A DNA stretch of 64,000 nucleotides from Mobula hypostoma (Eukaryota): NCBI RefSeq assembly GCF_963921235.1, contig NC_086108.1, positions 37,140,001 through 37,204,000 of the forward strand, read 5' to 3'. A program made the position numbers and the translations under genes. Position 1 is the first letter of the stretch; the number at the start of each line of letters is the position of its first letter. The notes beneath the pieces are model-generated. The model was not told the DNA's origin. It searched no databases and saw nothing but the letters and a program-made list of their open reading frames with translations. Below, piece by piece: positions 20,733 to 63,239 of this stretch.

Positions 20733-23700
20733 AGAACATGGAACATAGAACAGTACAGCACAGGAACAGGCCTTCAGCCCACAGTGTTGTGCCAAACTAA
20801 ATAAATTAGTCGTGAAATGGTTAACCAAACTACACAATGTCCACATCCTTCCACTTTCCTCACATTCATGTGCCTAAGTGCTTCTTTAATGTCTCTGTTG
20901 TATTTGTCTTCAGCACCACCACTGGAAGTGCTTTCCAGATACCAAACACTACACTCTGCTTAAAAAAAACTACCCCTGTGTATCTCCTTAGAATTTGCCT
21001 GCCTCAGCTTAAGTGCCTGCCTTTTGGTATTAGACATATCAATCTTGCACAAAAGGTGCTACTGCCTACTCTATCTATGCCCCTCCCAATTCTATAAACT
21101 TTTATCAGATCTCCACTCAACTTCTACAACTCCAGAAAAAAGCATCACAAGTCTGTGCAATCTTTTGTTAGAGCACATGGCCTCTAATCTAGGCAGCATC
21201 CTGGTAAATCTCTTCTGCACCTTCTTCAGAACCTCAACATTCTTTCTATAGTAGGGTGACCAGAATTGAATGCAATATTCCAAAAGTGACCTAACTAGAA
21301 TTTTATAAAACTACAGCATAACTTCATGACTCTTGAACTCATTCCTGTGACTAATAAAGTTAAGTATGCCACATGTCCTCTTTACCATCCTATCAACCTG
21401 TTTAGCCATTTTCAGGGAACCATGGACATACATGCCAAATTCCATCTTCACACCAACATGGTATTATGGGTCTTGCCGTTAACAATGTTTTCTTCCTTTA
21501 CATTTGATCTTGCAAAATGCAATACTTCACATTTGGCTGGTTTAAGCTCCATCTGCTATTTCTGTACCCATACCTGCTATATCCTGCTGTATCCTTTGGC
21601 AGACTTCTACATTATCCTCAACACCACTATTCTTACAACAAACTTACTAACCCTTCCATATATGCTTACTGTATATCTAGGTCATTTATGTATTTGACAA
21701 ATAGTAGAACTCTCAGTACGGATCCCTGGAACACCACTAGTCACAGATCTCCAGCAAACACTACCTTCTGTCTTCTATGGGGAAGACAATTCTAAATCAA
21801 AAAGGCCAATTCACTGCATATCCCATACATCTTAATCTTCTAGATGAACCTCCATGGGGGATCTTGTCTAATGCCACACCGGTCCATGTGGACAGCATCG
21901 ACAACTCTATCTTCATCAGTCAGCTTTGACAGCTTGAAAAACTCTATCAATTTAGTAAGACATGACTTGCCCCACAAAACCATGGTGGTTACCTTTAAAT
22001 AAGCCATGATTTTCTAATGCTCATAAATCCTATCCCTAAGAATACTTTTCAGTAACTTCACTACCACTGATCTGAAACTCACTGGTCTAGTTTCCAGGAC
22101 TTTTGCTTTTATATTATAGTATTCTTGAAATAAATGCTAATATTGTATCTGCCTCCTTACAACCGGCTCAACCTGCAAATTAACCTTCAGGGAATCCTCC
22201 ACGAGGACTCCCAATTCCCTTTGCACCAATGATTTCTGAAATTTCTCCTGGTTTATAAAATAGTCTATGCTTTTATTTCTTCTACTAAATTGAATGACCA
22301 TACACATCCCCACACTGTATTCCATCTGCAACATCTTTGCCTATTCTCCTAATCTGGCTAAATCCTTCTGCAAACTCCCTGCTTCCTCACTACTACATGC
22401 CTCTTCAACTATCTTTGTATTGTCTGCAAACCTGGCCACAAAGCCATCAATACCATCATCCAAATCATTAACACGATGACGAGCGTGAAAAGAAACGACT
22501 TCAACACCAACCCCTGCTGAACACCACTAATCACTATTAGGCTTCCAGAAAAGGTCTCTTTGTTCTCACTCTTTGCCTCCTGCCAGTCATCCATTCTAGT
22601 ATGTTTCCTGTAATGCTACGAGCTCTTATCTTATTTAGCAACGTTATATGTGTCACCTTGTCAAAGGCCTTCTGAAAATCCAAGTAAGCAACATTCTCTG
22701 ATTCTTCTCCTTTGTCTCTTCTGCCTGTTATTTCCTCAAATAATTTCAACAGATTTGTCAGGTAGGTTTTCCCCTTAAGGAAACCATGCTGGCTACAGAA
22801 TATTTTATCACGTACTTTCAAGCACCTTGAAAACTTATCCTTAATAATGGACCCCAACTTCTCAACCACTGAAGTCAGGCTAACTGGTCTATAATGTTCT
22901 GTCTTTTGCCTCGTTCCCTTCTTAAAGAGTGGAGTGACATTTGTAATTTTCCAGGCCTCCAGAACCATTCCAGGACCAAATGATTCTTGAAAGATCACTA
23001 TTAGTGCTATTACAATCTCTTCAGATACCTCTTTCAGATTCCTGGAGTGCAGTCCATCTGGTCCAGGTAACTTATTTACCTTCAGATATTTCAGCTTCCC
23101 AAGCACATCTCCTTTGTAATATCAACTACAGATACTTCTGCCTTCAGACTCTCTCAAATTTCTGGCATGGTGCTTGTGTCTTCCACATAGAAGACTGATG
23201 TAATGTAGTTAATAGGTTCATCTTCCATTTCTTTGTCCCCCATTACTACCTCTCCAGCATCATATTCCTGCAGTCCAATATCCACTCTCACCTCTCTTTA
23301 CTCTTCACATATCTGAAAAAAATAACTTCTAGTATTCTCTTTTACAGTATTGGCTAGCTTATATTTTTCATCTTTTCTCTCCTTATGCCTTTTTTATTTG
23401 CCTTCTGTTGTTTTTTAAAAGCTTCCCAATCCTCTAGTTTCACTCTAATTTTTGATATGTTATATGCCCTTTCTTTTACTTTTATGTTGTTTTTGACATC
23501 CCCTGTCAGATACAGCTGTCTTATCCACCCATCAGAATACTTCTTCTGTTGGAAGTACTGTACCTTCCAAATTGCTCCCAGAAATTCAAGCCATTGTTGT
23601 TCTGGCATCATCCCTGCTAGCGTTTCCTTCCAATCAACTTTGGCTAACTCTTTTCTCATGCCTCTATAGTTTCCTTTAATCCATGGTAATACTGATACAT

Positions 23701-43626: not shown

Positions 43627-46600
43627 GAACAAAGAATAGTACAGCACAGTACAGGCCCTACGGCCCACAATGTTGTGCTGACCCTTAAACTCTGCCTCCC
43701 ATATAAGTCCCCACCTTAAATCCTCCATATACCTGTCTAGTAGTCTCTTAAATTTCACTAGTGTATCTGCCTACATCACTGACTCAGGCAGTGTATTCCA
43801 CGCACCAACCACTCCCTGAGTAAAAAACCTTCCTCTAATATCCCCCTTGAACTTCCCACCCCTTACCTGAAAGCCATGTCCTCTTGTATTGAGCAGTGGT
43901 GCCCTGGGGAAGAGGAGCTGGCTGTCCACTCTATCTATTCCTCTTAATATCTTGTATACCACTATCATGTCTCCTCTCATCCTCATTCTCTCCAAAGAGT
44001 AAAGCCCTAGCTTCCTTAGTCTCTGATCATAATACATACTCTTTAAACCAGGCAGTATCCTGGTAAATCTCCTCTGTACCCTTTCCAATGCTTCCACATC
44101 CTACCTATAGTGAGGTGACCAGAACTGGACACAGTACTCCAAGTGTGACCTAACCAGAGTTTTATAGAGCTGCATCATTACCTCACGACCCTTAAACTCT
44201 ATCCTTCGACTTATGAAAGCTAACACCCCATAAGCTTTGTTAACTACCCTATCTACCTGCGAGGCAACTTTCAGGGATCTGTGGACATGTCCACCCAGAT
44301 CCCTCTGCCCCTCCACACTACCAAGTATCCTGCCATTTACTTTGTACTCTGCCTTGGAGTTTGTCCTTCCAAAGTGTACTACCTTACACTTCTCCAGGTT
44401 GAACTCCATCTGCCACTTCTCAGCCCACTTCTGCGTCCTATCAATGTCTCTCTGCAACCTTCAACAATCCTCTACCCTATCCACAACACCACCAACCTCT
44501 GTGTCATCTGCAAACTTGCCAACCCATCCTTCTATCCCCACATCCAGGTCGTTAATAAAATACATGAAAAGTAGAGGTCCCAGAACAGATCCTTAAGGGA
44601 CACCACTAGTCACAATCCTCCAATCTGAATGTACTCCCTCCACCACGACCCTCTGCCTTCTGCAGGCATGCCAATTCTGAATCCACCTAGCTAAACTTCC
44701 CTGGATCCCATGCCTTCTGACTTTCTGAATAAGCCTACCGTCTGGAAACTTGTCAAATGCCTTACTAAAATCCATGTAGATCACATCCACTGCACTACCC
44801 TCATCTATGTGTCTGGTCACCTCCTCAAAGAACTCTATCAGGCTTGTTAGACATGATCTGCCCTTCACAAAGCCATGCTGACTGTCCCTGATCAGACCAT
44901 GATTCTCTAAATGCCCATAGATCCTATCTCTAAGAATCTTTTCCAACAGCTTTCCCACCACAGACGTAAGGCTCACTGGTCTATAATTACCCGGACTATC
45001 CTTACTAACTTTTTTGAACAAGGGGACAACATTCGCCTCCCTCCAATCCTCTGGTACCATTCCCGTGGACAGCAAGGACATAAAGATCCTAGCCAGAGGC
45101 TCAGCAATCTTTTCCCTCACCTCGTGGAGCAGCCTGGAGAATATTCCGTCAGGCCCTGGGGACTTATCCATCCTAATGTATTTTAGCAACTCCAACACCT
45201 CCTCTCCCTTAATATCAACACGCTAAAGAACATCAACCTCACTCATATTGTCCTCACCGTCATCAAGCTCCCTCTCATTGGTGAATACCGAAGAGTATTC
45301 ATTAAGGACCTCGCTCACTTCCACAGCTTCCAGGCACATCTTCCCACCTTTATCTCTAATTGGTCCTACCTTCACTCCTGTCATCTTTTTGTTCTTCACA
45401 TAATTGAAGAATGCCTTGGGGTCATCCTTTACCCTACTCACCAAGGCCTTCTCATGCCCCCTTCTTGCTCTCCTCAGCCCCTTCTTAAGCTCCTTTCTTG
45501 CTCAATAGGCCCATCTGATCCTTGCTTCCTAAACCTCATTTTTGCTGCCTTCTTCCAGCTGACTAGATTTTCCACCTCACTTGTCACCCATGGTTCCTTC
45601 ACCCTACCATTCTTTATCTTTCTCACCGGGACAAATTTATCCCTAACATCTTGCAAGAGATCCCTAAACATCGACCACATGTCCATAGTACATTTCCCTG
45701 CAAAAACATCATCCCAATTCACACCCGCAAGGTTAGCCTTATAGCCTCATAATTTGCCCTTCCCCAATTAAAAATTTTCCTGTCCTCTCTGTTTCTATCC
45801 TTTCCCATGATAATGCTAAAGGCCAGGGAGCAGTGGTCACCATCCCCCAGATGCTCACCCACTGAGAGATCTGTGACCTGACCTGGTTCATTACCTAATA
45901 CTAGATCTAGTATGGCATTCCCCCTAGTCGGCCTGTCAACATACTGTGACAGGAATCCATCCTGGACACACTTAACAAACTCTGCCCCATCTAAACCATT
46001 GGAACTAATCAGGTGCCAATCAATATTAGGGAAGTTAAAGTCACCCATGATAATAACCCTGTTATTTTTGCACCTTTCCAAAATCTACCTCCCAATCTGC
46101 TCCTCGGTATCTCTACTGCTACCAGGGGGCCTATAGAATACCCCCAACAGAGTAACTGCTCCCTTCCTGTTCCTGACTTCCACCCATACTGACTCAAAAG
46201 AGGATCCTGCTACATTACCCACCCTTTCTGTTGCTATAATAGTATCCCTGACCAGTAATGCCACCCCGCCTCCCCTTTCCCCCCTCTCTATCCCTTTTAA
46301 AGTACTGAAATCCAGGAATATTGAGAATCCATTCCTGCCCTGATGCCAGCCAAGTCTCTGTAATGGCCACAGCATCATAATTCCATGTATGTATCCAAGC
46401 TCTCAGTTCATCACCTTTGTTCCTGATGCTTCTTGCATTGAAGTACACGCACTTTAGCCCTTCTACCTTTACACCCTTTATTCTGCTTCCCTTTCCTCAA
46501 AGCCTCTTTATATGTTAGATCTGGCTTTACTCCATGCACTATACTTGCAGTTCTCGCATGAACTTTATCCTCCTCCACCTCACTATCTGCTCCGACACTC

Positions 46601-53005: not shown

Positions 53006-55901
53006 AGAACATAGAAACACAGAAAACCTACAGAACAATACCGGACCTTCAGCCCACAATGCTGTGCCGAACATGTTCTTAGTTTAGAAATTACCTCGGG
53101 CTACCGAAGTCCTCTATTTTTCTAAGTTCCATGTACCTATCCAGGAGTCTCTTAAAAGATCCTATTGTGTCCACCTCCACCACAGTCACCAACAGCCCAT
53201 TCCACTCACTCACCATTCAACTTAACTGTGACATCGCCTCTGTACCTGTTTCCAAGCACCTTAGAACTGTGCCCTCTCATGTTAGCCATTTCAGCCCTGG
53301 GAAAAAGCCTCTGACTATCCACACGATCAATGCCTTTCATCATCTTATACACATCTATCAGGTCACCTCTCGTCCTCTGCTGCTCCAGGGAGAAAAGGCC
53401 GAGTTCACTCAACCTATTCTCATAAGGCATACTCCCCAATCCAGGCAACATCCTTGTAAATCTCCTCTGCTCACTTTCTATAGTTTCCACATCCTTCCTA
53501 TAGTGAGGTGACCAGAACTGAGCACAGTACTCCAAGTGGGGCCTGAGCAGGGTCCTATATAGCTGTAACATTACCTCTTGGCTCTTAAACTCAATCCCAG
53601 GGTTGATGAAGGCAAATGCACCATATGCTTTCTTAGCTACACAGTCAACCTGCACAGCAGCTTTGAGTGTCCTATGGACTCAGACTCCAAGATCCCTCTG
53701 ATTCAACACACTGCCAAGAGTCTTATCATTAATACTATATTCTGCCATCATATTTGACCTACCAAAATGAACCACTTCACACTTACCTGGGTTGAACTCC
53801 ATCTGCCACTTCTCAGCCCAGTTTTGCATCCTATCAATGTCCCGCTGTAACCTCTGACAGCCCTCCAAACTATCCACAACACCCCCAACCTTTGTGTCAT
53901 CAGTAAATTTACTAACCCATCCCTCTACTTCGTCATCCACGTCATTTATAAAAATCACAAAGAGAAGGGGTCCCAGAACAGACCCCTGAGGCACACCACT
54001 GGTCACCAACCTCCATGCAGAATATGACACACCTACAAGCACTCTTTGTCTTCTGTGGGCAAGCCAGTTCTGGATCCACAAAGCAATGTCCCCTTGGATC
54101 CCATGCCTCCTTACTTTCTCAATAAGCCTTGCATAGGGTACCTTGTAAAATGCCTTGCTGAAATCCATACACATCATATCTACTGCTCTACCTTCATCAA
54201 TGTGTTTAGTCACACCTTCAAAAAATTCAATCAGGCTCGTAAGGCACAACCTGGCCTTTGACAAAACCATGCTGACTATTCCTAATTATATGTTTTACGA
54301 AGAAACAGCATTTCAAGATGTATACTATATACATTTTTCTAAATTGAACCTTTGACCCTTGATTATGCCTCTCCAAATGTTCATAAATCCTGCCTCTCAA
54401 GATCTTCACCATCAACTTACCAACCACTGAATTAAGACTCACTGGTCTATAATTTCCTGGGCTATCTCTCTTTCTTGAACAAGGGAACAACATCTATAAC
54501 CCTCCAATCCTCTGGAACCTCTCCCGAACCCATTGATGATGCAAAGATCATTGCCAGAGGCTCAGCAATCTCCTCCCTTGCCTCCCACAGTAGCCTGGAG
54601 TATATCTCATCTGGTCCCAGTGACTTATTCAACTTGATGTTTTCCAAAAGCTCCAGCATATCCTCTTTCTTAATATCTATATGCTCAAGCTTTGCAGTCA
54701 GCTGTAAGTCATCCCTACAATCACCAAGGTCCTTTGCCGTAGTGAATACTGAAGCAATGTATTCGTTATGTACCTCTGCTATCCCCTCTGGTTCCATACA
54801 CACTTTTTCACTGTCACAATTGATTGGTCCTATTCTCTCACATCTTATCCTCTTGCTCTTCACATACTTCTATAATGCCTTTGGGTTTTCCTTAATCCTG
54901 CTCGCCAAGGCCTTCTCATGACCCCCTCTGGCTCTCCTAATTTCATTCTTAAGCTTGTTTCTCCTAGCCTTATAATCTTCTAGATCTCAATCATTACCTG
55001 GTTTCTTGAACCTTTTGTAAGCTTTTTCCTTCTTGACTAGATTTTCAACAACCTTTGTACACCATGGTTCCTCTACTCTACCATCCTTTCCCTGTCTCAT
55101 TGAAACGTACCTACACAAATATCCCCTGAACATTTGCCACATTTCTGCTGTACATTTCCCTGAGATCATCTGTTCCCAATTTATGCTTCCAAGTTCCAGC
55201 CTGATAGCTTCATATTTCCCCTTACTCCAATTAAACGCTTTCCTAACTTGTCTGTTCGTAACCCTCTCCAATGCTAAGGTAAAGGAGATAGAATTGTGAT
55301 CACTATCTTCAAAGAGATCTCTGAGAGATCTGACACCTGACCAGGTTCATTTCCCAATTCCAGCTCAAGTACAGCCTCTCCTCTTGTAGGCTTATCTACA
55401 TATTGTGTCAAGAAACCTTCCTGAACACACCTAACAAACTCTACCCCTACCAAACCCCTCACTCTAGGGAGATGCCAATCAATATTGGGGTAATCAAAAT
55501 TTCCCACCATGGTTAAAATAGACACAACTCAAACCATCTGTCTGAGCATATCCCTTCTCTATCTTCTGTTTATCCTTCCTCTCACACAGTCTACAAGCTT
55601 TCTCTATTTGTGAGCCAACTGCCCCTTCCTCCATCCCTTCAGTTTGGTTCCCACCCCCCAGCAATCCTAGTTTAAACTCTCCCCAATAGCCTTAGCAAAC
55701 CTCCCTGCCAGGATATTGGGCCCCCTCGGATTCAAGTGCAACCCCTCAGTTTTGTGCAGGTCACACCTGCTCCAATAGAGGTCCCAAAGATCCAGAAATC
55801 TGAATCCCTGCCCCTTGCTCCAATCCCTCAGCCACACATTTATCCTCCACCTCACTCTATTCCTATACTCACTGTCGTGTGACACAGGCAGAAATCCTGA
55901 G
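53006..55901 (-). mobile_element. CR1 LINE nested in the PLE
   Basis: GLHLNPRG (end of ORF1), GNFDYPNIDW, YRPVSL, GVPQGSVLGPLLFVIFIND, KFTDDTK, EYCAQFWSP; small insert at about 54288-54360. Confidence 0.92.
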
Positions 55902-56435: not shown

Positions 56436-57978
56436 TTTTACAGGAGACAGGGTGGGAAGAGGTATAATCAATATAGCTGTGGAAATTGGTAGGTTTATAA
56501 TAAGATGTTGCTCATCAGATTGTCTGCAGAAAAATCAAAAAAGAGGAAGGAGGTTTCAGAAATGGACCGAGTGAATTTAAAGGTAGGGTGGAAGTTGGAG
56601 TTGATGAAATAGATGAACTCCACATGGGTGCATGAAACAGCACCAATGCAGTCATTAAAGTACTGGAGGAAGATTTAGGGAGCATTTCCAATGAGGGCTT
56701 GGAACATAGACTCATCTACGCAGCCAACGAAAAGTCAGCCATACCTGGGGCCCATGCAGGTGCCCATGGCTACCCCTTGAGTCTGAAGAAAGTGGAAGAA
56801 GCCAAAGGAGAAATTTTTGAAGGAGAACACTAGTTCTGCCAGGTGGAGGAGGGTAGCGGTGGAGTGGAACTAGTTGGTTCTTTTGTGAAGAAAGAGGCTG
56901 AGAGTTTTAAAGCCTTCTTGATGGGGCATAGAGATGTACAGGGACTGGACATTTAAGCTGAAAATGATGCAGTCAGGGCCAGGGAATTGAAAGTTGTTGA
57001 GGAGATTGAGAACACGTGAAGTGTCATGGATGTAGGTGGAAAGGGACTGAACCAAAGGCGTTAGATTGGAGTAGGGGTATAAGGACACATGTTTTATGTC
57101 TTCTGATTGACCTTTTTGTCTTGATTTTATTTCGGAAGCTGTTGAAGCCTGTGATGTGTAGTTTGGAACTCTATCGGATGATCTATTACTCTGCTGTCCC
57201 TGAAGAGGACCATGAGCACAAGCTGCCTCAGGCAGAAGACCAGAGACGAGGCCATGATCGACTCCATTTCGAAGTGTTGAGGAAGATTGAAGCATTGATG
57301 TGAATGTGGAGGAGGTCAAAAGTAGCTCTCTATGGAGGCCACGGTTGATGGTGGTTGGCAGCCGAGCCAGCGTCAGTCGGAAAGCCGCAGACTAGCAGCT
57401 CAGCGGCTGCTCCTCACGGGAGGACTGTGTTCAAGTGGGCGCTCTCCTCGATTCTGATGGGAGGAGGTTTTCGAAATTCTAAGACTGATGTGATTATTTG
57501 GCTGTAGTTTATATTGCTCTCCTTCCATTTCCTGTGTTTTCCTTCTTGCTGCCAACCGGGGGGTTGGGGTTCCAGGTGAGCGATATGTTAGTTCTTGTGT
57601 GATGGAGGGGTTGAGGATTTGGGGTCTGGTGTTCTTATTGGTTTTTCTGTGTGGGTGGCCTGTTTGTTTTTGTGTGTGAGAGGGGGGTTGGGGGATCAAT
57701 ACAATTGTCGATGTCTTATTTGCAAGGGAGGTGGTTGGGGGTTAGGGGTTTGACGTTATAGCTGCCATTTTCCATGTGGGTGATCTGTTAAGTTTCTGTA
57801 TGAGGGAAGGGTCGGGAGGTTTGCGGTTTGATGTTCTAGTTGCCGTTTCTCGCGCGGGCAATCTATTAATTTTTTGAGCAAGGGAGAGGGTGGGGGTTGT
57901 GGTTGGTGAGTTTAGTTTTTCCTTTTTTTTGGGGGGGGGGTTTGATGTCTTTATTTCAATGATTCCATGGTTTCTCTG

Positions 57979-58196
57979 TGTACTGTATGGCCTACAGTAT
58001 AATAAGGGACTACTTTATGTTGTAGGAACACATCATTGCATGTGCTATTATGCACGTATTGACCATACGCTATTAGGTGCATATTGATCTGTACTTGTGT
58101 GCTGAGTTCGGTTTCTGCCAGTAGAGAACCATGTCGCTCCCGTCTCCAGCGTTTTTATTAATAGCATTGTTGTGTAACCAGGCCACATACACAACA
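57979..58196 (+). repeat. 5' LTR (218 bp)
   Basis: TGTACTGTATGGCC...ACACAACA; direct repeat of 62130-62326. Confidence 0.95.
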
Positions 58197-58199
58197 AAT

Positions 58200-58210
58200 T
58201 GGCGACGAGG
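58200..58210 (+). promoter_or_regulatory. Primer binding site complementary to the 3' end of tRNA-Ser(GCT)
   Basis: TGGCGACGAGG, 3 nt after the LTR; the vertebrate tRNA-Ser(GCT) 3' end is CCTCGTCGCCA. Confidence 0.85.
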
Positions 58211-58578
58211 TTAACCTATATCGTATCGGAACGCTGTGTTTTAACGAAAACGAAACTCAGAAGAAGAGTTCAAGGAACGAGCCAAGGAGCAGGAGAAGGA
58301 GGTAGAGTGAGGCTACGAGTCTGAAAGGAAGCGGGAGCACAGCTGGGGTCGGGAACGTCGGTAGACCAAGAGACACAGTTGGAGCTGCAGCACGTCCAGC
58401 TGAGATCACAGCCAGTGCTAACCCACAGGGGCTGAGGGTCTGCCTGCCCCAGAAGGGAGAGAAAAAGGAGGAACACACACACATCTAGACATCTAGTGTG
58501 TTCGTGGCACTAGCAAAATGGACACGTGAGTCAAAAAGGAAAATAAGAGGAGAACGGGGCTAAATTAACATAACAAAA

Positions 58579-59760
58579 ATGGTGATGATTGGAACCATTG
58601 CAGCATTTGATAGTGGCATTGAAGACTGGGCAACTTACATTGAAAGAGTGAAGTTATATTGTAAGGCTAACGGTGTTAATGATGAAAAGAAAGCCAGCAT
58701 CTTAGTACTATGGGAGCAAAAACATACCAGCTGCTATGGAGCTTGTTAACCTTTGAAAAGCCAGCTAACAAAACATACAAGCAAATAGTAGACACTCTCC
58801 AACAGCATTTAAACCCCAAACCACTGGTCATTGCTGGAAGATTTAAATTTCTCAAACAGAATCAGAGCAAAAATGAAAGCATTTCTGAATATTGTGCTGA
58901 ATTGCATAAATTATCAGAACATTGTCAATTTGGAACTGGTCTATCGGATGCATTGAGGGACAGATTTATGTGTGACATGCACTGTGAAACCACACAGAAG
59001 AAGCTCCTGTGTGAAAAGACCTCACATTAGAGATGGTGCTGAACATTGCAATATCAACAGAAATAGCAACACGGGGTGCTTCAGAGATACAACAAAAATC
59101 TCTGGAATATGCTACGAATGAAATGTCACTGAACAGGAATGAAGGATAGAAATGTTACTGTTGTGGGAACATGTCACATGACCCTGATGAATGTTGGTTT
59201 AAAGACAAAAAATGCAGAAACTATGGCAAATAGGGCCACATTGGCAGAGTATGCAAAGCTAGTAAACAGCAGAAAAAGGAGAAAATACAGAGAAACAAGA
59301 AACCCCAGAAAGGAAAACACAACAATGTACACAAAATGGAAGAAAGTAGTTCTGATGAAAACGACTCAGATGAAAGTGAATTGCCTTGTCGGCAACTTCA
59401 CAGCATGAAAGAGACAGATGATCAAAGAGTAATAAGGATCACTCCACAAGTGGCAGGTATGAGACTGAAAATGGAGTTGGACACAGGTTCAGCTTTAACA
59501 GCGATGTCTGTACGTGATTACAAATGAGTGCTTTCTCACATACCTCTGAAATGAACTAAACTGCTGCTAAAGACTTACACAGGACAGAAAGAGTATCCCA
59601 AAGATAAAATTAAAGTGACAGTGACCTATGGAGACAAAACACAGCAGCTGAACCTCTATATACTGAGAAATGGAGGAGCACTGTTGCTGGGACATGAATG
59701 GCTCAGGAAAATCCAGTTGGATTAGCACACCATTAAGGCACGAGATATGTCAACAAAGGA
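58579..59760 (+). pseudogene. Gypsy gag + aspartic protease, decayed
   Basis: MVMIGTIAAFDSGIEDWATYIER; MGAKTYQLL..PKPLVIAGRFKF..Q..ESISEY..LRDRF; CYCCGNMSHDPDEC..CRNYGK*GHIGRVC; MELDTGSA..LLGHEWLRKI. Two frameshifts in gag and several stops. Confidence 0.92.
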
Positions 59761-59779
59761 GGGCAGCTCAGCGGGGAAG

Positions 59780-60711
59780 ATGTCCGCAGCTCTCCTCTCA
59801 CCCATTGTCAACTATTACAATGATGAGGAGGAGCTAGACAGCATCGACGACGAGGACGAACACAGTATCTGTGGCCGCAACTCAGATGAAGATACAAAGG
59901 ATGCAAGAGAGACAGATATTGCCAATCAGCACATGAAGACTACCTGGAAGTAAAAGTGCAGATGCGCCAGGAGAAATTGACATCTCTCAAAAGACAGCTA
60001 CAGCAGTTACAGGAAGTCACTTTGCAGGAGTATCAGAAAAGGATGAAGAAACTAGATCAACAATACAAGGAAAGAATACGAAATGCAGGGCTTTTTCTGC
60101 AACTGGAGACAGAACAAGTGGAAAGGAATTATATTAAAGAGACGAAAGAAGCAGTGAAGGAATTTGTGGATAAAAAGATTGAGTTAGAAGAAAAGAAAAA
60201 GATGATTGAGAATGAGAGTCTAACAATGGAACTCACAGGGGATTCTATGGAGGTAAAGCCAATAATGACTAGGAAACTAAGGAGGAGATCTAATAACCCT
60301 GTTCCAATTACAAACAAAAGACGAAAACCTGCACCTGTGCAGTTGAATTACTTGTTAACAGATGAACAGATAATGGAAGATCTGCGAACTCTCAATAAGC
60401 TTAAATCTCCAAAAAGACCAGCATCTCCATCTTCTCCTGAGTATCTTCCCAGCTCTCCTGCTGAATCACCAGCACAAACATATGAAGCACGAATAGAAGG
60501 TAGAAAGTTATATTACGATAAGAAATGGTATCATACAAGTCAGGCTATCTATTTGGAATCTAAGGAAAATACGAAGATTGGCTGTGTAATTAGCTCAGCT
60601 GGAACAAATTAGATATGCGTAAGGAAGACAAGTGATAGCACAAAGATGCGTATATTTCTAGGACAGCTGCACAGAGGAGTCTTCATTATACGGAGGCGAT
60701 CTGCTATCTAG
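59780..60711 (+). pseudogene. SUDS3: Intronless retrocopy of Sin3 histone deacetylase corepressor complex component SDS3
   Basis: [135 protein letters not shown]. Frameshift at about 59925-59935, premature TAG at 60610-60612, apparent 8-codon deletion at about 60185. Confidence 0.95.
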
Positions 60712-60724
60712 AACTCTTAGCAAG

Positions 60725-61795
60725 TTTTGTAATTTATTTTTTACTGAAGTTCATCATCGAACAAAACTTTCCAGAAGACGTATTTCAGATACTGTACATA
60801 TATATCATATAGTCATATTTGTCACAAATCTCCACATAATATTTATCTGCGGTAAACACTTATAGAAAGGAGAGGAAAGAAAGAACAATCAAAAGAAGAA
60901 AACTATGTACAAAGTAGGGAGTGATCTTTTTTTTTACAACATAATCATTGACTTGTGAGAATAAAATCAGGCCTATGAGGTGTTATGTATTTAAACCATT
61001 TTTCCCCAGTATGAATCAAAGCGAAGTGTCTTGGCCCGAAATGTCGACTGTACATCTTCCTAAAGATGCTGCCTGGCCTGCTGCATTCACCAACAAATTT
61101 GATGTGTGTTACTATTGAGCACGGCTTACTTTCTGTGTCTCCGGAGGGCTGTGGGACGAGCACATGATGCGCCCTCTCATTTTCAATCTCCATAGTCAGG
61201 GGAATCTCCAGTGCTTCCCACAGCAACTTTTCTACAAACTCCGTCATTGACAATCCCTCCGCTCCTTTGGGAACATTATAAATCCTGATATTTTTCTGTC
61301 GCAATCTTCCCTCCTGGTCAAGCAATTTACTTCCCTGTTGATTTAATATTTTTATCATCTTACTTAGTATCCGTTGCACGTTTTGCACGTGATCTTCCAC
61401 CTTTTCAATTCGAGTCTCTGCTACCACCACTTTCTGATTGACGTTGGCGAGCTCTGACTTGATATCATTGAGTTGCTGTTTTATATCTTTTTGGACTTCC
61501 CTTATCTCTTCTAGAATCTTTATCATGTTTGCCGCTTCACCTGAACAAGGCCCAGCGTCAGCTTTGCCACCACGTGCACGTGTAGGAGAGCTGTGCGTTG
61601 CACATCTCTCTTCCATAGGCTCCGCAGTGGTGCTTTTTTTATCTCCATTCTTTTTCACCATTCTTGTCTCCCTTATCAATTCAGATATTTTCGAAAGATC
61701 TTATATTTGGTGGATTCACGGGGCAAAATGCATTTTTCCGGAGGAGCTGTTGATTTAAGCTGCCATTCCGGATGATGATGTCACCAGAATCAGCG
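60725..61795 (-). mobile_element. Internally deleted L1-clade LINE (5' UTR, ORF1 N-terminal part, ORF2 extreme C-terminus, 3' UTR) nested in the Gypsy element
   Basis: Coiled coil followed by EGRLRQKNIRIYNVPKG..EIENERAH (L1 ORF1p RRM-like); 3' UTR ending AATAAATTACAAAA at about 60725. Confidence 0.82.
61021..61110 (+). mobile_element. PLE terminal-repeat fragment at the L1 deletion junction
   Basis: GGCCCGAAATGTCGACTGTAC..GATGCTGCCTGGCCTGCTGCATTCACCAAC. Confidence 0.8.
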
Positions 61796-61882
61796 CACAT
61801 CTTCTTAACTCCTTATGCTCAGAGGTCAACTTTTCATGACTTTCATATGGAAATCTGTATTAAAACAAGCAAGTTTATTGAT

Positions 61883-61935
61883 AGACGTTACCCAGAGAGG
61901 CAGAGAAGACCCTCCCACAGAGACTTGAGTTATAA
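61883..61935 (+). pseudogene. Extreme C-terminus of Gypsy pol (integrase tail)
   Basis: RRYPERQRRP..QRLEL* with a frameshift in a C run; typical RRYPxRxRRPPxRL end of Gypsy pol. Confidence 0.7.
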
Positions 61936-62111
61936 ATGGGTCTTAGACCAAAAGTAAAAAAAGACTTGTTATAATTTGATATTATTGTGTTACTTTGTTA
62001 TGATTTGATATTATTAAGTTACTAAGTAAACAAATGGTAGGCATTTGTATATTAAGGGTAGACATATTTGTTTAGCATAGTGTCCCAGTAAAAAAAAGTT
62101 GATACACTATT

Positions 62112-62129
62112 AAAATAAAAGGGAAGGAG
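62112..62129 (+). promoter_or_regulatory. Polypurine tract
   Basis: AAAATAAAAGGGAAGGAG immediately before the 3' LTR. Confidence 0.88.
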
Positions 62130-62326
62130 TGTACTGTATGGCCTACAGTATAATAAGGGACTACTTTATGTTGTAGGGACACGTCGTTGCATGCGCAATA
62201 GGCATGTATTGATCTGTATGTGTGTGCCAAGTTTGGTTTCTGCCAGTAAAGAACCATGAACCTTAGCTCCCATCTCCAGTGTTTTTATTAATAGCATTGT
62301 TGTGTAACCAGGCCACGTACACAACA
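62130..62326 (+). repeat. 3' LTR (197 bp)
   Basis: First ~48 nt identical to the 5' LTR; elsewhere it differs mainly by CpG-type transitions and two indels. Confidence 0.95.
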
Positions 62327-63239
62327 CTCTGTATTTCTTGGCTATCTGGAGAAGACAAATATCGGAGTTGTGTTGTACATGTATACCTTGACAATAATAT
62401 AAACCTTAGAATCTTTTTCAGTGGAGCAGGAGTAGGCAGAGCAGAGACTCCTGGACACGACTACCTGGACAGTCAGGTTTGTGGATCTTGGGTAGGTGGC
62501 AGAAGGGCAGAGTACAAAGTACAGTGCGGGGTAAGGGAACTATGAGGTTGATGGTAGCAGATGGGAGTTATCCAGGGTTGATGAGGTCAGTGATCGTGTT
62601 GGAGACAATATTCTGATGGCCTGGAGTAGGGTCCTCTTCAACGGGTAAGTAAGAGGAGGTATCTGAGTATTGGTACCTGGCTTCAGCAAGGTAGAGTTCA
62701 GTTTGCTACACTACAACAGCTCCCCCTTTGTCTATGGGTTTGATAATAAGGTTGGGATCAGTGCTGAGCGAGTAGAGGGCAGTACATTCACAGGGGGTAA
62801 TGTTTAAGGAGTAAGGAATACTAAATTTGAACCAGTTGACATACTAGACACCTTCTCTGTATCTCATTGGAAATCAGCCATAAATGCTGGCATGTTTTTA
62901 AATGATCCAAAAAATGCTGAACAGTACATAATAATGTTTGCTACGCTTGGGTGCAATGATATATTCAAGGAAAGACTGATGTTGCATTTGGCCCTGTTTT
63001 ATTGCCGTGTTTCCCGTCCTCTAGGCTTTTTGCTTCAATGTTATATTCTGCTTACGATCATTTTTTTTTTGTAAATTGATGTTCCTATCATCACTACAAT
63101 AATCACTATAGGAGCATTATATTTGGTTAAATAATCTCCACCCGGCAGAAGCCAAACACCAGTTGTGAAATAGCAAGCTTCTCTCCTCTAGACCATTATC
63201 TCAATGTAACAGATTCATTCTCCGTTTCTTTATTCTACA

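Follow-up and report, generated by a model that had tools for sequence, protein, structure and literature searches.

A Gypsy element carrying a spliced SUDS3 coding sequence

The window analyzed here is a 64,000-nt stretch of the Mobula hypostoma genome (contig NC_086108.1, forward-strand positions 37,140,001 to 37,204,000), and coordinates given without a contig are positions in this window. The element at 57979-62326, referred to as the window copy, is a Gypsy retrotransposon with long terminal repeats (LTRs) in which a coding sequence of the host gene SUDS3 lies between the protease and the last codons of the integrase. A first-pass annotation, made from the sequence alone, had read an ordered series of parts at this locus, from target-site duplication (TSD), LTR and tRNA-Ser primer-binding site (PBS) through gag, protease and an integrase tail to the polypurine tract (PPT), the second LTR and the second TSD. 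All of these parts are present, as listed below.

57974-57978, plus strand: left TSD, CTCTG
57979-58196 (218 nt), plus strand: 5´ LTR, long variant with two copies of a 25-nt unit
58200-58210, plus strand: PBS, 11 nt, complementary to the 3´ end of tRNA-Ser(GCT) and its CCA
58579-59767, plus strand: decayed gag-protease, with two CCHC-type knuckles in gag and a protease of the aspartic type; in the family in one frame with SUDS3
59758-59767, plus strand: 5´ junction, 10 nt common to the element and the SUDS3 5´ untranslated region (UTR)
59768-59779, plus strand: remainder of the captured SUDS3 5´UTR
59780-60711, plus strand: SUDS3 coding sequence made of 12 spliced exons, carrying a 24-nt deletion common to the family as well as a frameshift and a stop found in this copy alone
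60712-60726, plus strand: first part of the SUDS3 3´UTR
60727-61792, minus strand: later insertion private to the window copy, presumably LINE-like by its motif
61793-61886, plus strand: second part of the SUDS3 3´UTR, terminating in a 7-nt overlap with the element (61880-61886)
61883-61935, plus strand: integrase tail, the last codons of the pol frame
62117-62129, plus strand: PPT
62130-62326 (197 nt), plus strand: 3´ LTR, short variant
62327-62331, plus strand: right TSD, CTCTG

Both LTRs of the window copy start with TG and end with CA, and they differ at 16 of 192 aligned columns. The PBS, TGGCGACGAGG, is the complement of CCA and of the 8 nt at the 3´ end of genomic tRNA-Ser(GCT) genes (14 pattern matches in the genome; both of the two that were scanned are tRNA-Ser GCT). 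TG...CA LTRs, PBS, PPT and a short TSD, which are the marks of a Ty3/Gypsy LTR retrotransposon, were likewise found in the family described below. Gag starts at 58579 and the DTGS motif of the protease lies at 59480; the protease of a sister copy gave a Pfam aspartyl-protease match with an E value of 3.7e-5, below the curated cut-off. In the window copy, gag-protease is interrupted by five in-frame stops and two indels.

The first-pass annotation described SUDS3 as an intronless sequence running from start to stop. This extent is correct, but the frame is not open: it is broken by a 4-nt deletion after 59931 and a nonsense codon at 60610, and it also bears the family-wide 24-nt deletion after 60179. 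The frame at 59890-60609 shows 82-88% identity to SUDS3 of rays and chimaera. The proposed segment, 59780-60711, corresponds to the coding part, and the captured piece is larger, extending from the 5´UTR at 59758 through 113 nt of 3´UTR to 61886.

The cargo is a mature SUDS3 mRNA

Host SUDS3 is located at G000:C78:8439661-8380525 and was the sole full match among 149 in a search with the eight residues that are missing from the element copies. Its protein is identical to the M. birostris protein at 319/319 aligned residues. The gene, correctly assumed to be multi-exon in the earlier annotation, comprises 12 exons across 59 kb, separated by 10 GT-AG introns and one AT-AC (U12-type) intron, intron 7 (G000:C78:8398853-8395737), which is spliced out in the element like the rest. 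The window copy spans all 11 host exon junctions without a gap, with 16-20 of 20 nt matching at each. With all 11 host introns gone in the element, the cargo is a mature SUDS3 mRNA.

The captured piece of this mRNA includes 22 nt ahead of the start codon, and its 3´ end lies either 113 nt past the stop codon (type A, which includes the window copy) or about 340 nt past it (type B). As noted for the window copy in the first pass, no poly(A) was observed at the 3´ end of either type, and no TSD was observed at either SUDS3 end in any locus examined.

Many separate integrations of a single chimera

A query of protease joined to SUDS3 returned 816 candidates, and the 40 that were scored all extend across the junction at 90% or more. 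An exact junction pattern of 23 nt, which the host gene also fits, gave 117 matches against 0 for the control. The same pattern was found in 9/29 and 13/54 copies obtained by other routes, placing the family at about 370-480 copies, a rough figure because both calibration sets are top-scoring matches. Forty junction-pattern matches, taken at even steps from 100 listed, formed the sample used below. Element sequence lies upstream of the junction in all 40, and no free SUDS3 retrocopy outside an element was found among them.

Eighteen of the sampled copies have both ends in view, and their TSDs are perfect in 12 and carry one mismatch in 4, all different. A second set (16/20 copies assessed) yielded 11 perfect and 4 one-mismatch TSDs of 5 bp. 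The basic chimeric unit is about 3.25-3.5 kb long, and its matches, which are 6-11% apart, are spread across more than 30 contigs, where flanks and TSDs differ. The mobilized SUDS3-carrying family that the first-pass annotation envisaged, with one junction at many loci and different TSDs, is thereby borne out, and the window locus is a later copy, not itself the product of the capture event. The 24-nt deletion in SUDS3 is present in 30/30 loci (L001-L030) and therefore indicates one origin of the chimeric family.

LTR length varies from about 198 to 223 nt, depending on whether one or two copies of the 25-nt unit are present, and seven of 15 pairs have one of each. Mixed lengths were considered as a sign of recombination and rejected, since the difference is one versus two copies of this unit.

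Among 120 listed SUDS3 proteins, five lack the eight residues that the 24-nt deletion removes; M. hypostoma accounts for three of these and M. birostris for two. Because the same deletion occurs in proteins of both species, the capture would predate their split. The nearest 'SDS3-like' database proteins are from Mobula, and the five with the deletion (P0003, P0006, P0010, P0050 and P0055) are probably element copies; P0003 starts with element-derived residues.

The possibility that the chimera is an assembly artifact, or that the copies are segmental duplications of one locus, is negligible and is refuted by the distinct TSDs. The spread over contigs, flanks and sequence distances argues against it, as does the presence of the same derived deletion in annotated proteins of two species. 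The flanks of the window copy match no other locus among those compared, and no empty site was found among these.

A pol-bearing helper family shares both breakpoints

The gag-protease of a sister copy shows 60-63% identity to single-ORF (open reading frame) Gypsy polyproteins of about 1310 residues, the nearest being K02A2.6-like and from fish elements. In a search with the start of the reverse transcriptase (RT), each of the 30 loci matches the window at 83-89% over gag-protease, and in 29 the match ends exactly at 59767. These helper loci align collinearly with a single-ORF polyprotein of 1311 aa whose Pfam domains follow the order protease-RT-RNase H-integrase; they have no env and end in an LTR. 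They are elements of 4.7-4.9 kb with the same LTR, PBS and tail as the chimera, and their exact junction has 104 matches in the genome. The similarity of these pol-bearing relatives to the window breaks off at 59767 and resumes at about 61880; by this comparison RT, RNase H and the integrase core were not found in the window copy, in agreement with the first-pass annotation.

The alignment with an intact element of the same LTR, which that annotation had proposed as a check, also revealed overlaps with the SUDS3 mRNA at the breakpoints. At the 5´ junction, GG(A/C)GGGCAGC is present in 23 of the 28 helper loci in which the junction motif was found (30 examined), and the same 10 nt occur in the host SUDS3 5´UTR with 9 or 10 of 10 positions matching. 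At the type-A 3´ junction, the 7-nt sequence GACAGAC is present in both the host UTR and the helper integrase tail. The chance of an overlap of 7 nt or more is about 4e-4 per junction, and short overlaps between cargo and parent are what template switching predicted.

LTR pairs differ equally in 15 chimeric and 7 helper pairs (9.4% versus 9.3%), which indicates the same age for helper and chimera. A tree built from the gag-protease of 85 copies has a star-like shape, and its terminal branches measure about 0.06 in both groups; 11 of its 82 inner branches are supported and the bootstrap has not settled, so that it says little on the monophyly of the chimeras. Amplification of helper and chimera together in one burst fits these data best.

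An origin without LTR machinery was also considered, in which a LINE-made SUDS3 retrocopy landed in an element that lost pol by separate deletions, or a pseudogene was recombined in at the DNA level, and the LTR machinery only copied the product later. The genome is rich in LINE-like sequence, LINE-like insertions land in chimeric copies, and the type-A junction lies near an ATTAAA, all of which this scenario would accommodate. It is nonetheless improbable and disfavored for SUDS3: the poly(A) tail and TSD that surround the cDNA of a LINE-made processed pseudogene are absent from both SUDS3 ends at the loci examined, the 5´ end has a 10-nt overlap, pol loss and cargo gain have the same breakpoints, and the sample contained no free retrocopy.

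In-frame fusion, two 3´ ends and a second cargo

The SUDS3 start codon is located 81 nt behind the codon that opens WLRKI in 24 of the 26 sampled copies with this motif, and one copy is open for 485 codons from the gag start into SUDS3 with no stop. On the basis of this spacing and this open copy, the ancestral chimera would have encoded a Gag-protease-SUDS3 polyprotein, with SUDS3 in the place of RT.

The 3´ ends of the 40 sampled copies comprise 15 of type A, 15 of type B and 10 others. Type A retains more of the element tail and type B more of the SUDS3 UTR; therefore, neither is a plain deletion of the other. Both types are scattered over the gag-protease tree, with 18 changes each, which is expected if RNAs recombined in shared particles. 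The simplest route to type A would be a second switch, between type-B RNA and helper RNA at GACAGAC, and the type-A junction of the window copy may thus stem from such a switch rather than from the original capture.

Eight of the sampled copies, six of the 10 others and two of type A, carry a second cargo whose reverse strand is RNF213 (E values of 1e-33 and 2e-12). This piece comprises at least six host exons from G000:C68:48816892-48833773, spliced and in antisense orientation, and SUDS3 precedes it at all 30 loci that a search with this piece retrieved. Two forms were observed. In the first, a 7-nt overlap near nt 690 marks the passage from SUDS3 directly into the element tail. The second exits SUDS3 at nt 677 and re-enters it at nt 668. 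The subfamilies, found at L112:2637-3500, L065:4597-5355, L150-L179 and L186-L205, contain the RING region within or after SUDS3, and at least 29 near-full matches of one form and 39 of the other were found.

For this second entry, insertion of a cDNA at the DNA level into one still-mobile copy and template switching to an antisense transcript are equally likely; the repeated SUDS3 stretch that flanks the antisense piece, with SUDS3 resuming from nt 668, suits the former. A circular RNA was considered as the source and rejected, since most copies extend into a further upstream exon-like coding stretch.

Three further observations concern the RNF213-bearing copies and their donor. An in-frame 57-nt deletion at SUDS3 nt 70-126 is common to L112, L121, L123, L135 and others and marks a sub-lineage that is mostly RNF213-bearing. 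A sense RPS8 coding piece (Pfam Ribosomal_S8e, E value of 2.5e-15) lies behind the 5´ LTR of one RNF213-bearing copy (L136:3679-4137), the sole such locus among those examined. The RNF213 donor contig has a second RZ-finger match at G000:C68:41296529, possibly an RNF213 paralogue.

Selection on gag-protease and on the cargo

Decay of SUDS3 was scored against the host coding sequence in 57 copies, a set that omits 13 of the sampled 40, in which SUDS3 is partial or interrupted. Non-CpG changes found in under 10 of the 57 copies comprise 1010 non-synonymous, 444 synonymous and 63 stop changes, for 641, 246 and 40 sites of the respective kind, and the SUDS3 part is free of stops and frameshifts in three copies. 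SUDS3 in these 57 copies has undergone near-neutral decay. Near-fixed differences from the host comprise 12 synonymous and 3 non-synonymous changes plus the deletion, and the number of synonymous ones is close to what would be expected to accumulate in the host gene over the same interval.

Variants present in 15% or more of copies were taken as the trace of the replicating lineages, with a synonymous expectation of 0.28. In gag-protease, 13 of 29 shared variants are synonymous in 82 chimeras (p 0.04) and 25 of 55 in 28 helpers (p 0.004). The corresponding count in SUDS3 is 0 of 4, and four variants give little test power. Shared variants thus show purifying selection on gag-protease and none on SUDS3, although the signal in the chimeras could be imported from the helpers. 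Because the shared SUDS3 variants lack the synonymous excess of gag-protease, SUDS3 looks like passenger cargo and is probably inert. Four sequencing runs presumed to be RNA, though none is recorded as such, were compared with a sister copy. Among 32 of the 945 resulting pieces, one contig of run X2 (1955-2216) bridges protease and SUDS3; it possibly derives from DNA and was not counted as evidence of expression.

A different view of the same origin and spread is that the family spread because of its cargo. The Gag-protease-SUDS3 protein would have freed a coiled-coil-deleted SUDS3 variant that poisons Sin3-HDAC silencing, or small RNAs would have acted against host SUDS3; later, the antisense piece would have acted against the innate-defense ligase RNF213. 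The recurrent in-frame fusion, the shared SUDS3 deletions that keep the frame and the number of chimeras, at least equal to that of helpers (117 versus 104 exact matches), are in line with this proposal. SUDS3 is described as a core Sin3L/Rpd3L subunit tied to heterochromatin (PMC8800102), and TART-A with nxf2 (PMC7785250) provides a precedent. However, the shared SUDS3 variants show no synonymous excess, the 12 synonymous changes among 15 near-fixed differences would be explicable by drift of the host gene since capture, and an in-frame fusion has a one-in-three chance. In the RNF213 subfamilies, the SUDS3 frame is interrupted near codon 226-233, yet these subfamilies reached at least 29 and 39 loci. 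A contribution of the cargo to the spread is thus unlikely.

Proposed capture by template switching and spread in trans

We assign a probability of about 85% to an origin by template switching in a Gypsy element, followed by amplification of the chimera in trans by the helper with SUDS3 as passenger. A single-ORF Gypsy element would have co-packaged mature SUDS3 mRNA. RT would have left the element RNA within the integrase tail and copied the mRNA from its 3´UTR as far as a point 22 nt before the start codon. At the 10-nt overlap it would then have switched back to the element, immediately downstream of the protease. The switches are proposed from the observed junctions. The product, as seen in the copies, retains the LTRs, PBS, PPT and a gag-protease fused in frame to SUDS3, whereas RT, RNase H and integrase are gone. 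Its spread to several hundred sites in the same burst would then have relied on enzymes that the pol-bearing parent family supplied. Recombination with helpers and sisters during the spread would account for the two 3´ junctions and the shuffled haplotypes, and antisense spliced RNF213 would have been taken up in the same period. SUDS3 would have ridden along as a passenger, and all examined copies are now decaying. The double template switch of the first-pass annotation is supported at the level of the family by the 10-nt and 7-nt overlaps, and not as an event at the window locus; no observation that this annotation had named as counter-evidence was encountered.

Several observations weigh against this account. 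Two of the 18 both-ended copies are without a TSD. Junction B shows only short similarity and may be the original junction, and junction A follows an ATTAAA at a distance of about 21 nt, a position at which a short mRNA might terminate, although no poly(A) remains. The antisense RNF213 piece is ill-suited to a simple switch onto mRNA in minus-strand synthesis. With regard to the passenger clause, the junction of gag-protease and SUDS3 is in frame, the test on shared SUDS3 variants has little power, and the two commonest shared SUDS3 deletions (24 and 57 nt) are in frame, whereas the private ones are so in 25 of 85 cases, which faintly suggests a role for the frame.

Other features of the window

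The insertion at 60727-61792 is absent from 29/29 sister loci compared, has no TSD of its own and coincides with the loss of 4 host nt at its site. Its minus strand contains a coiled-coil frame with a motif that we take to be L1-ORF1-like; neither Pfam nor PDB supported an L1 identity. A short common repeat lies within it at 61022-61114. Elsewhere in the window, long minus-strand frames at 3-2330, 22540-23121, 44596-45222 and 53683-54285 presumably represent pieces of CR1/L2-type LINE ORF2, judging by their motifs. No host gene is evident in the window judging by long frames alone.

Relation to known systems

In replication-defective transducing retroviruses, which encode gag-onc fusions, a host mRNA replaces pol and the defective genome is spread by a helper. 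The SUDS3 family resembles them in the host mRNA in place of pol, the fusion to gag and the apparent helper-dependent spread. It differs in that the helper lacks env, the element is a germline retrotransposon and no sign of selection on the cargo protein was observed.

The mechanism itself is already known, as LTR-mediated retroposition with Bs1-type re-mobilization; the size that the family reached and its subsequent acquisition of a second gene are unusual. LTR-mediated retrocopies, including their mechanism, multi-gene chimeras and re-mobilization, were described by Tan et al. 2016 (PMC5131818). In that work, spliced mRNA lies within a discontinuous LTR element with short overlaps at the switch points, 3´ truncation occurs without poly(A) or TSD, one unit can hold several parent genes, and non-autonomous re-mobilization is considered possible. 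The SUDS3 family shares the intronless mRNA between element halves, the short overlaps (10 and 7 nt; similarity only at junction B) and the absence of poly(A) and TSD. The cases presented there (PMC5131818) are single or few loci, often with partial mRNAs, whereas in the SUDS3 family a whole coding sequence replaces pol in frame with gag-protease and occurs in hundreds of copies with structural subfamilies. Maize Bs1, as summarized by the same authors, is an LTR element that holds host exons of several genes, has 1-5 copies per genome and shares switch points among copies (PMC5131818). The SUDS3 family has the features of such a non-autonomous family, namely many integrations, shared switch points, different TSDs and a helper of the same age; unlike the plant element, it resides in a vertebrate and is about 100 times larger. 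Drosophila TART-A similarly carries sequence of a host silencing gene, nxf2 (PMC7785250, PMC13534243). TART-A is a non-LTR element with gene fragments and small-RNA evidence, while the SUDS3 family is known from DNA sequence alone.

A VGP retrocopy survey (bioRxiv 10.64898/2026.06.26.734816) places SUDS3 among the five commonest retrocopy parents in cartilaginous fishes, ties retrocopies to non-LTR elements, and reads its lists as formation bias and selective filtering. Its main text does not contain 'Gypsy', 'Mobula' or 'RNF213', and its supplements may list these loci. The copies described here differ from that reading, as they point to one capture amplified by an LTR family. Two other genes on the survey list showed no such family here, with SLU7 giving five exon matches at one locus and the MIR domain (SDF2L1 family) 18 exon matches at seven loci. 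No published account of a SUDS3-carrying Gypsy family was found in the literature outside subscription journals, Repbase and Dfam.

The rank of SUDS3 as a top retrocopy parent in cartilaginous fishes is thus re-explained, and per-gene retrocopy counts in this group can mirror one LTR-amplified capture rather than LINE activity or selective retention. For annotation, the probable identity of several 'SDS3-like' Mobula gene models as element copies calls for caution. The hundreds of copies that share a junction provide near-neutral markers for ray phylogeny. If the cargo did help the element, the family would represent a vertebrate case of counter-silencing by gene capture. With parent gene, helper, breakpoints and serial captures in view, a helper-dependent transduction cycle can be followed in the germline of a vertebrate across an entire repeat family.

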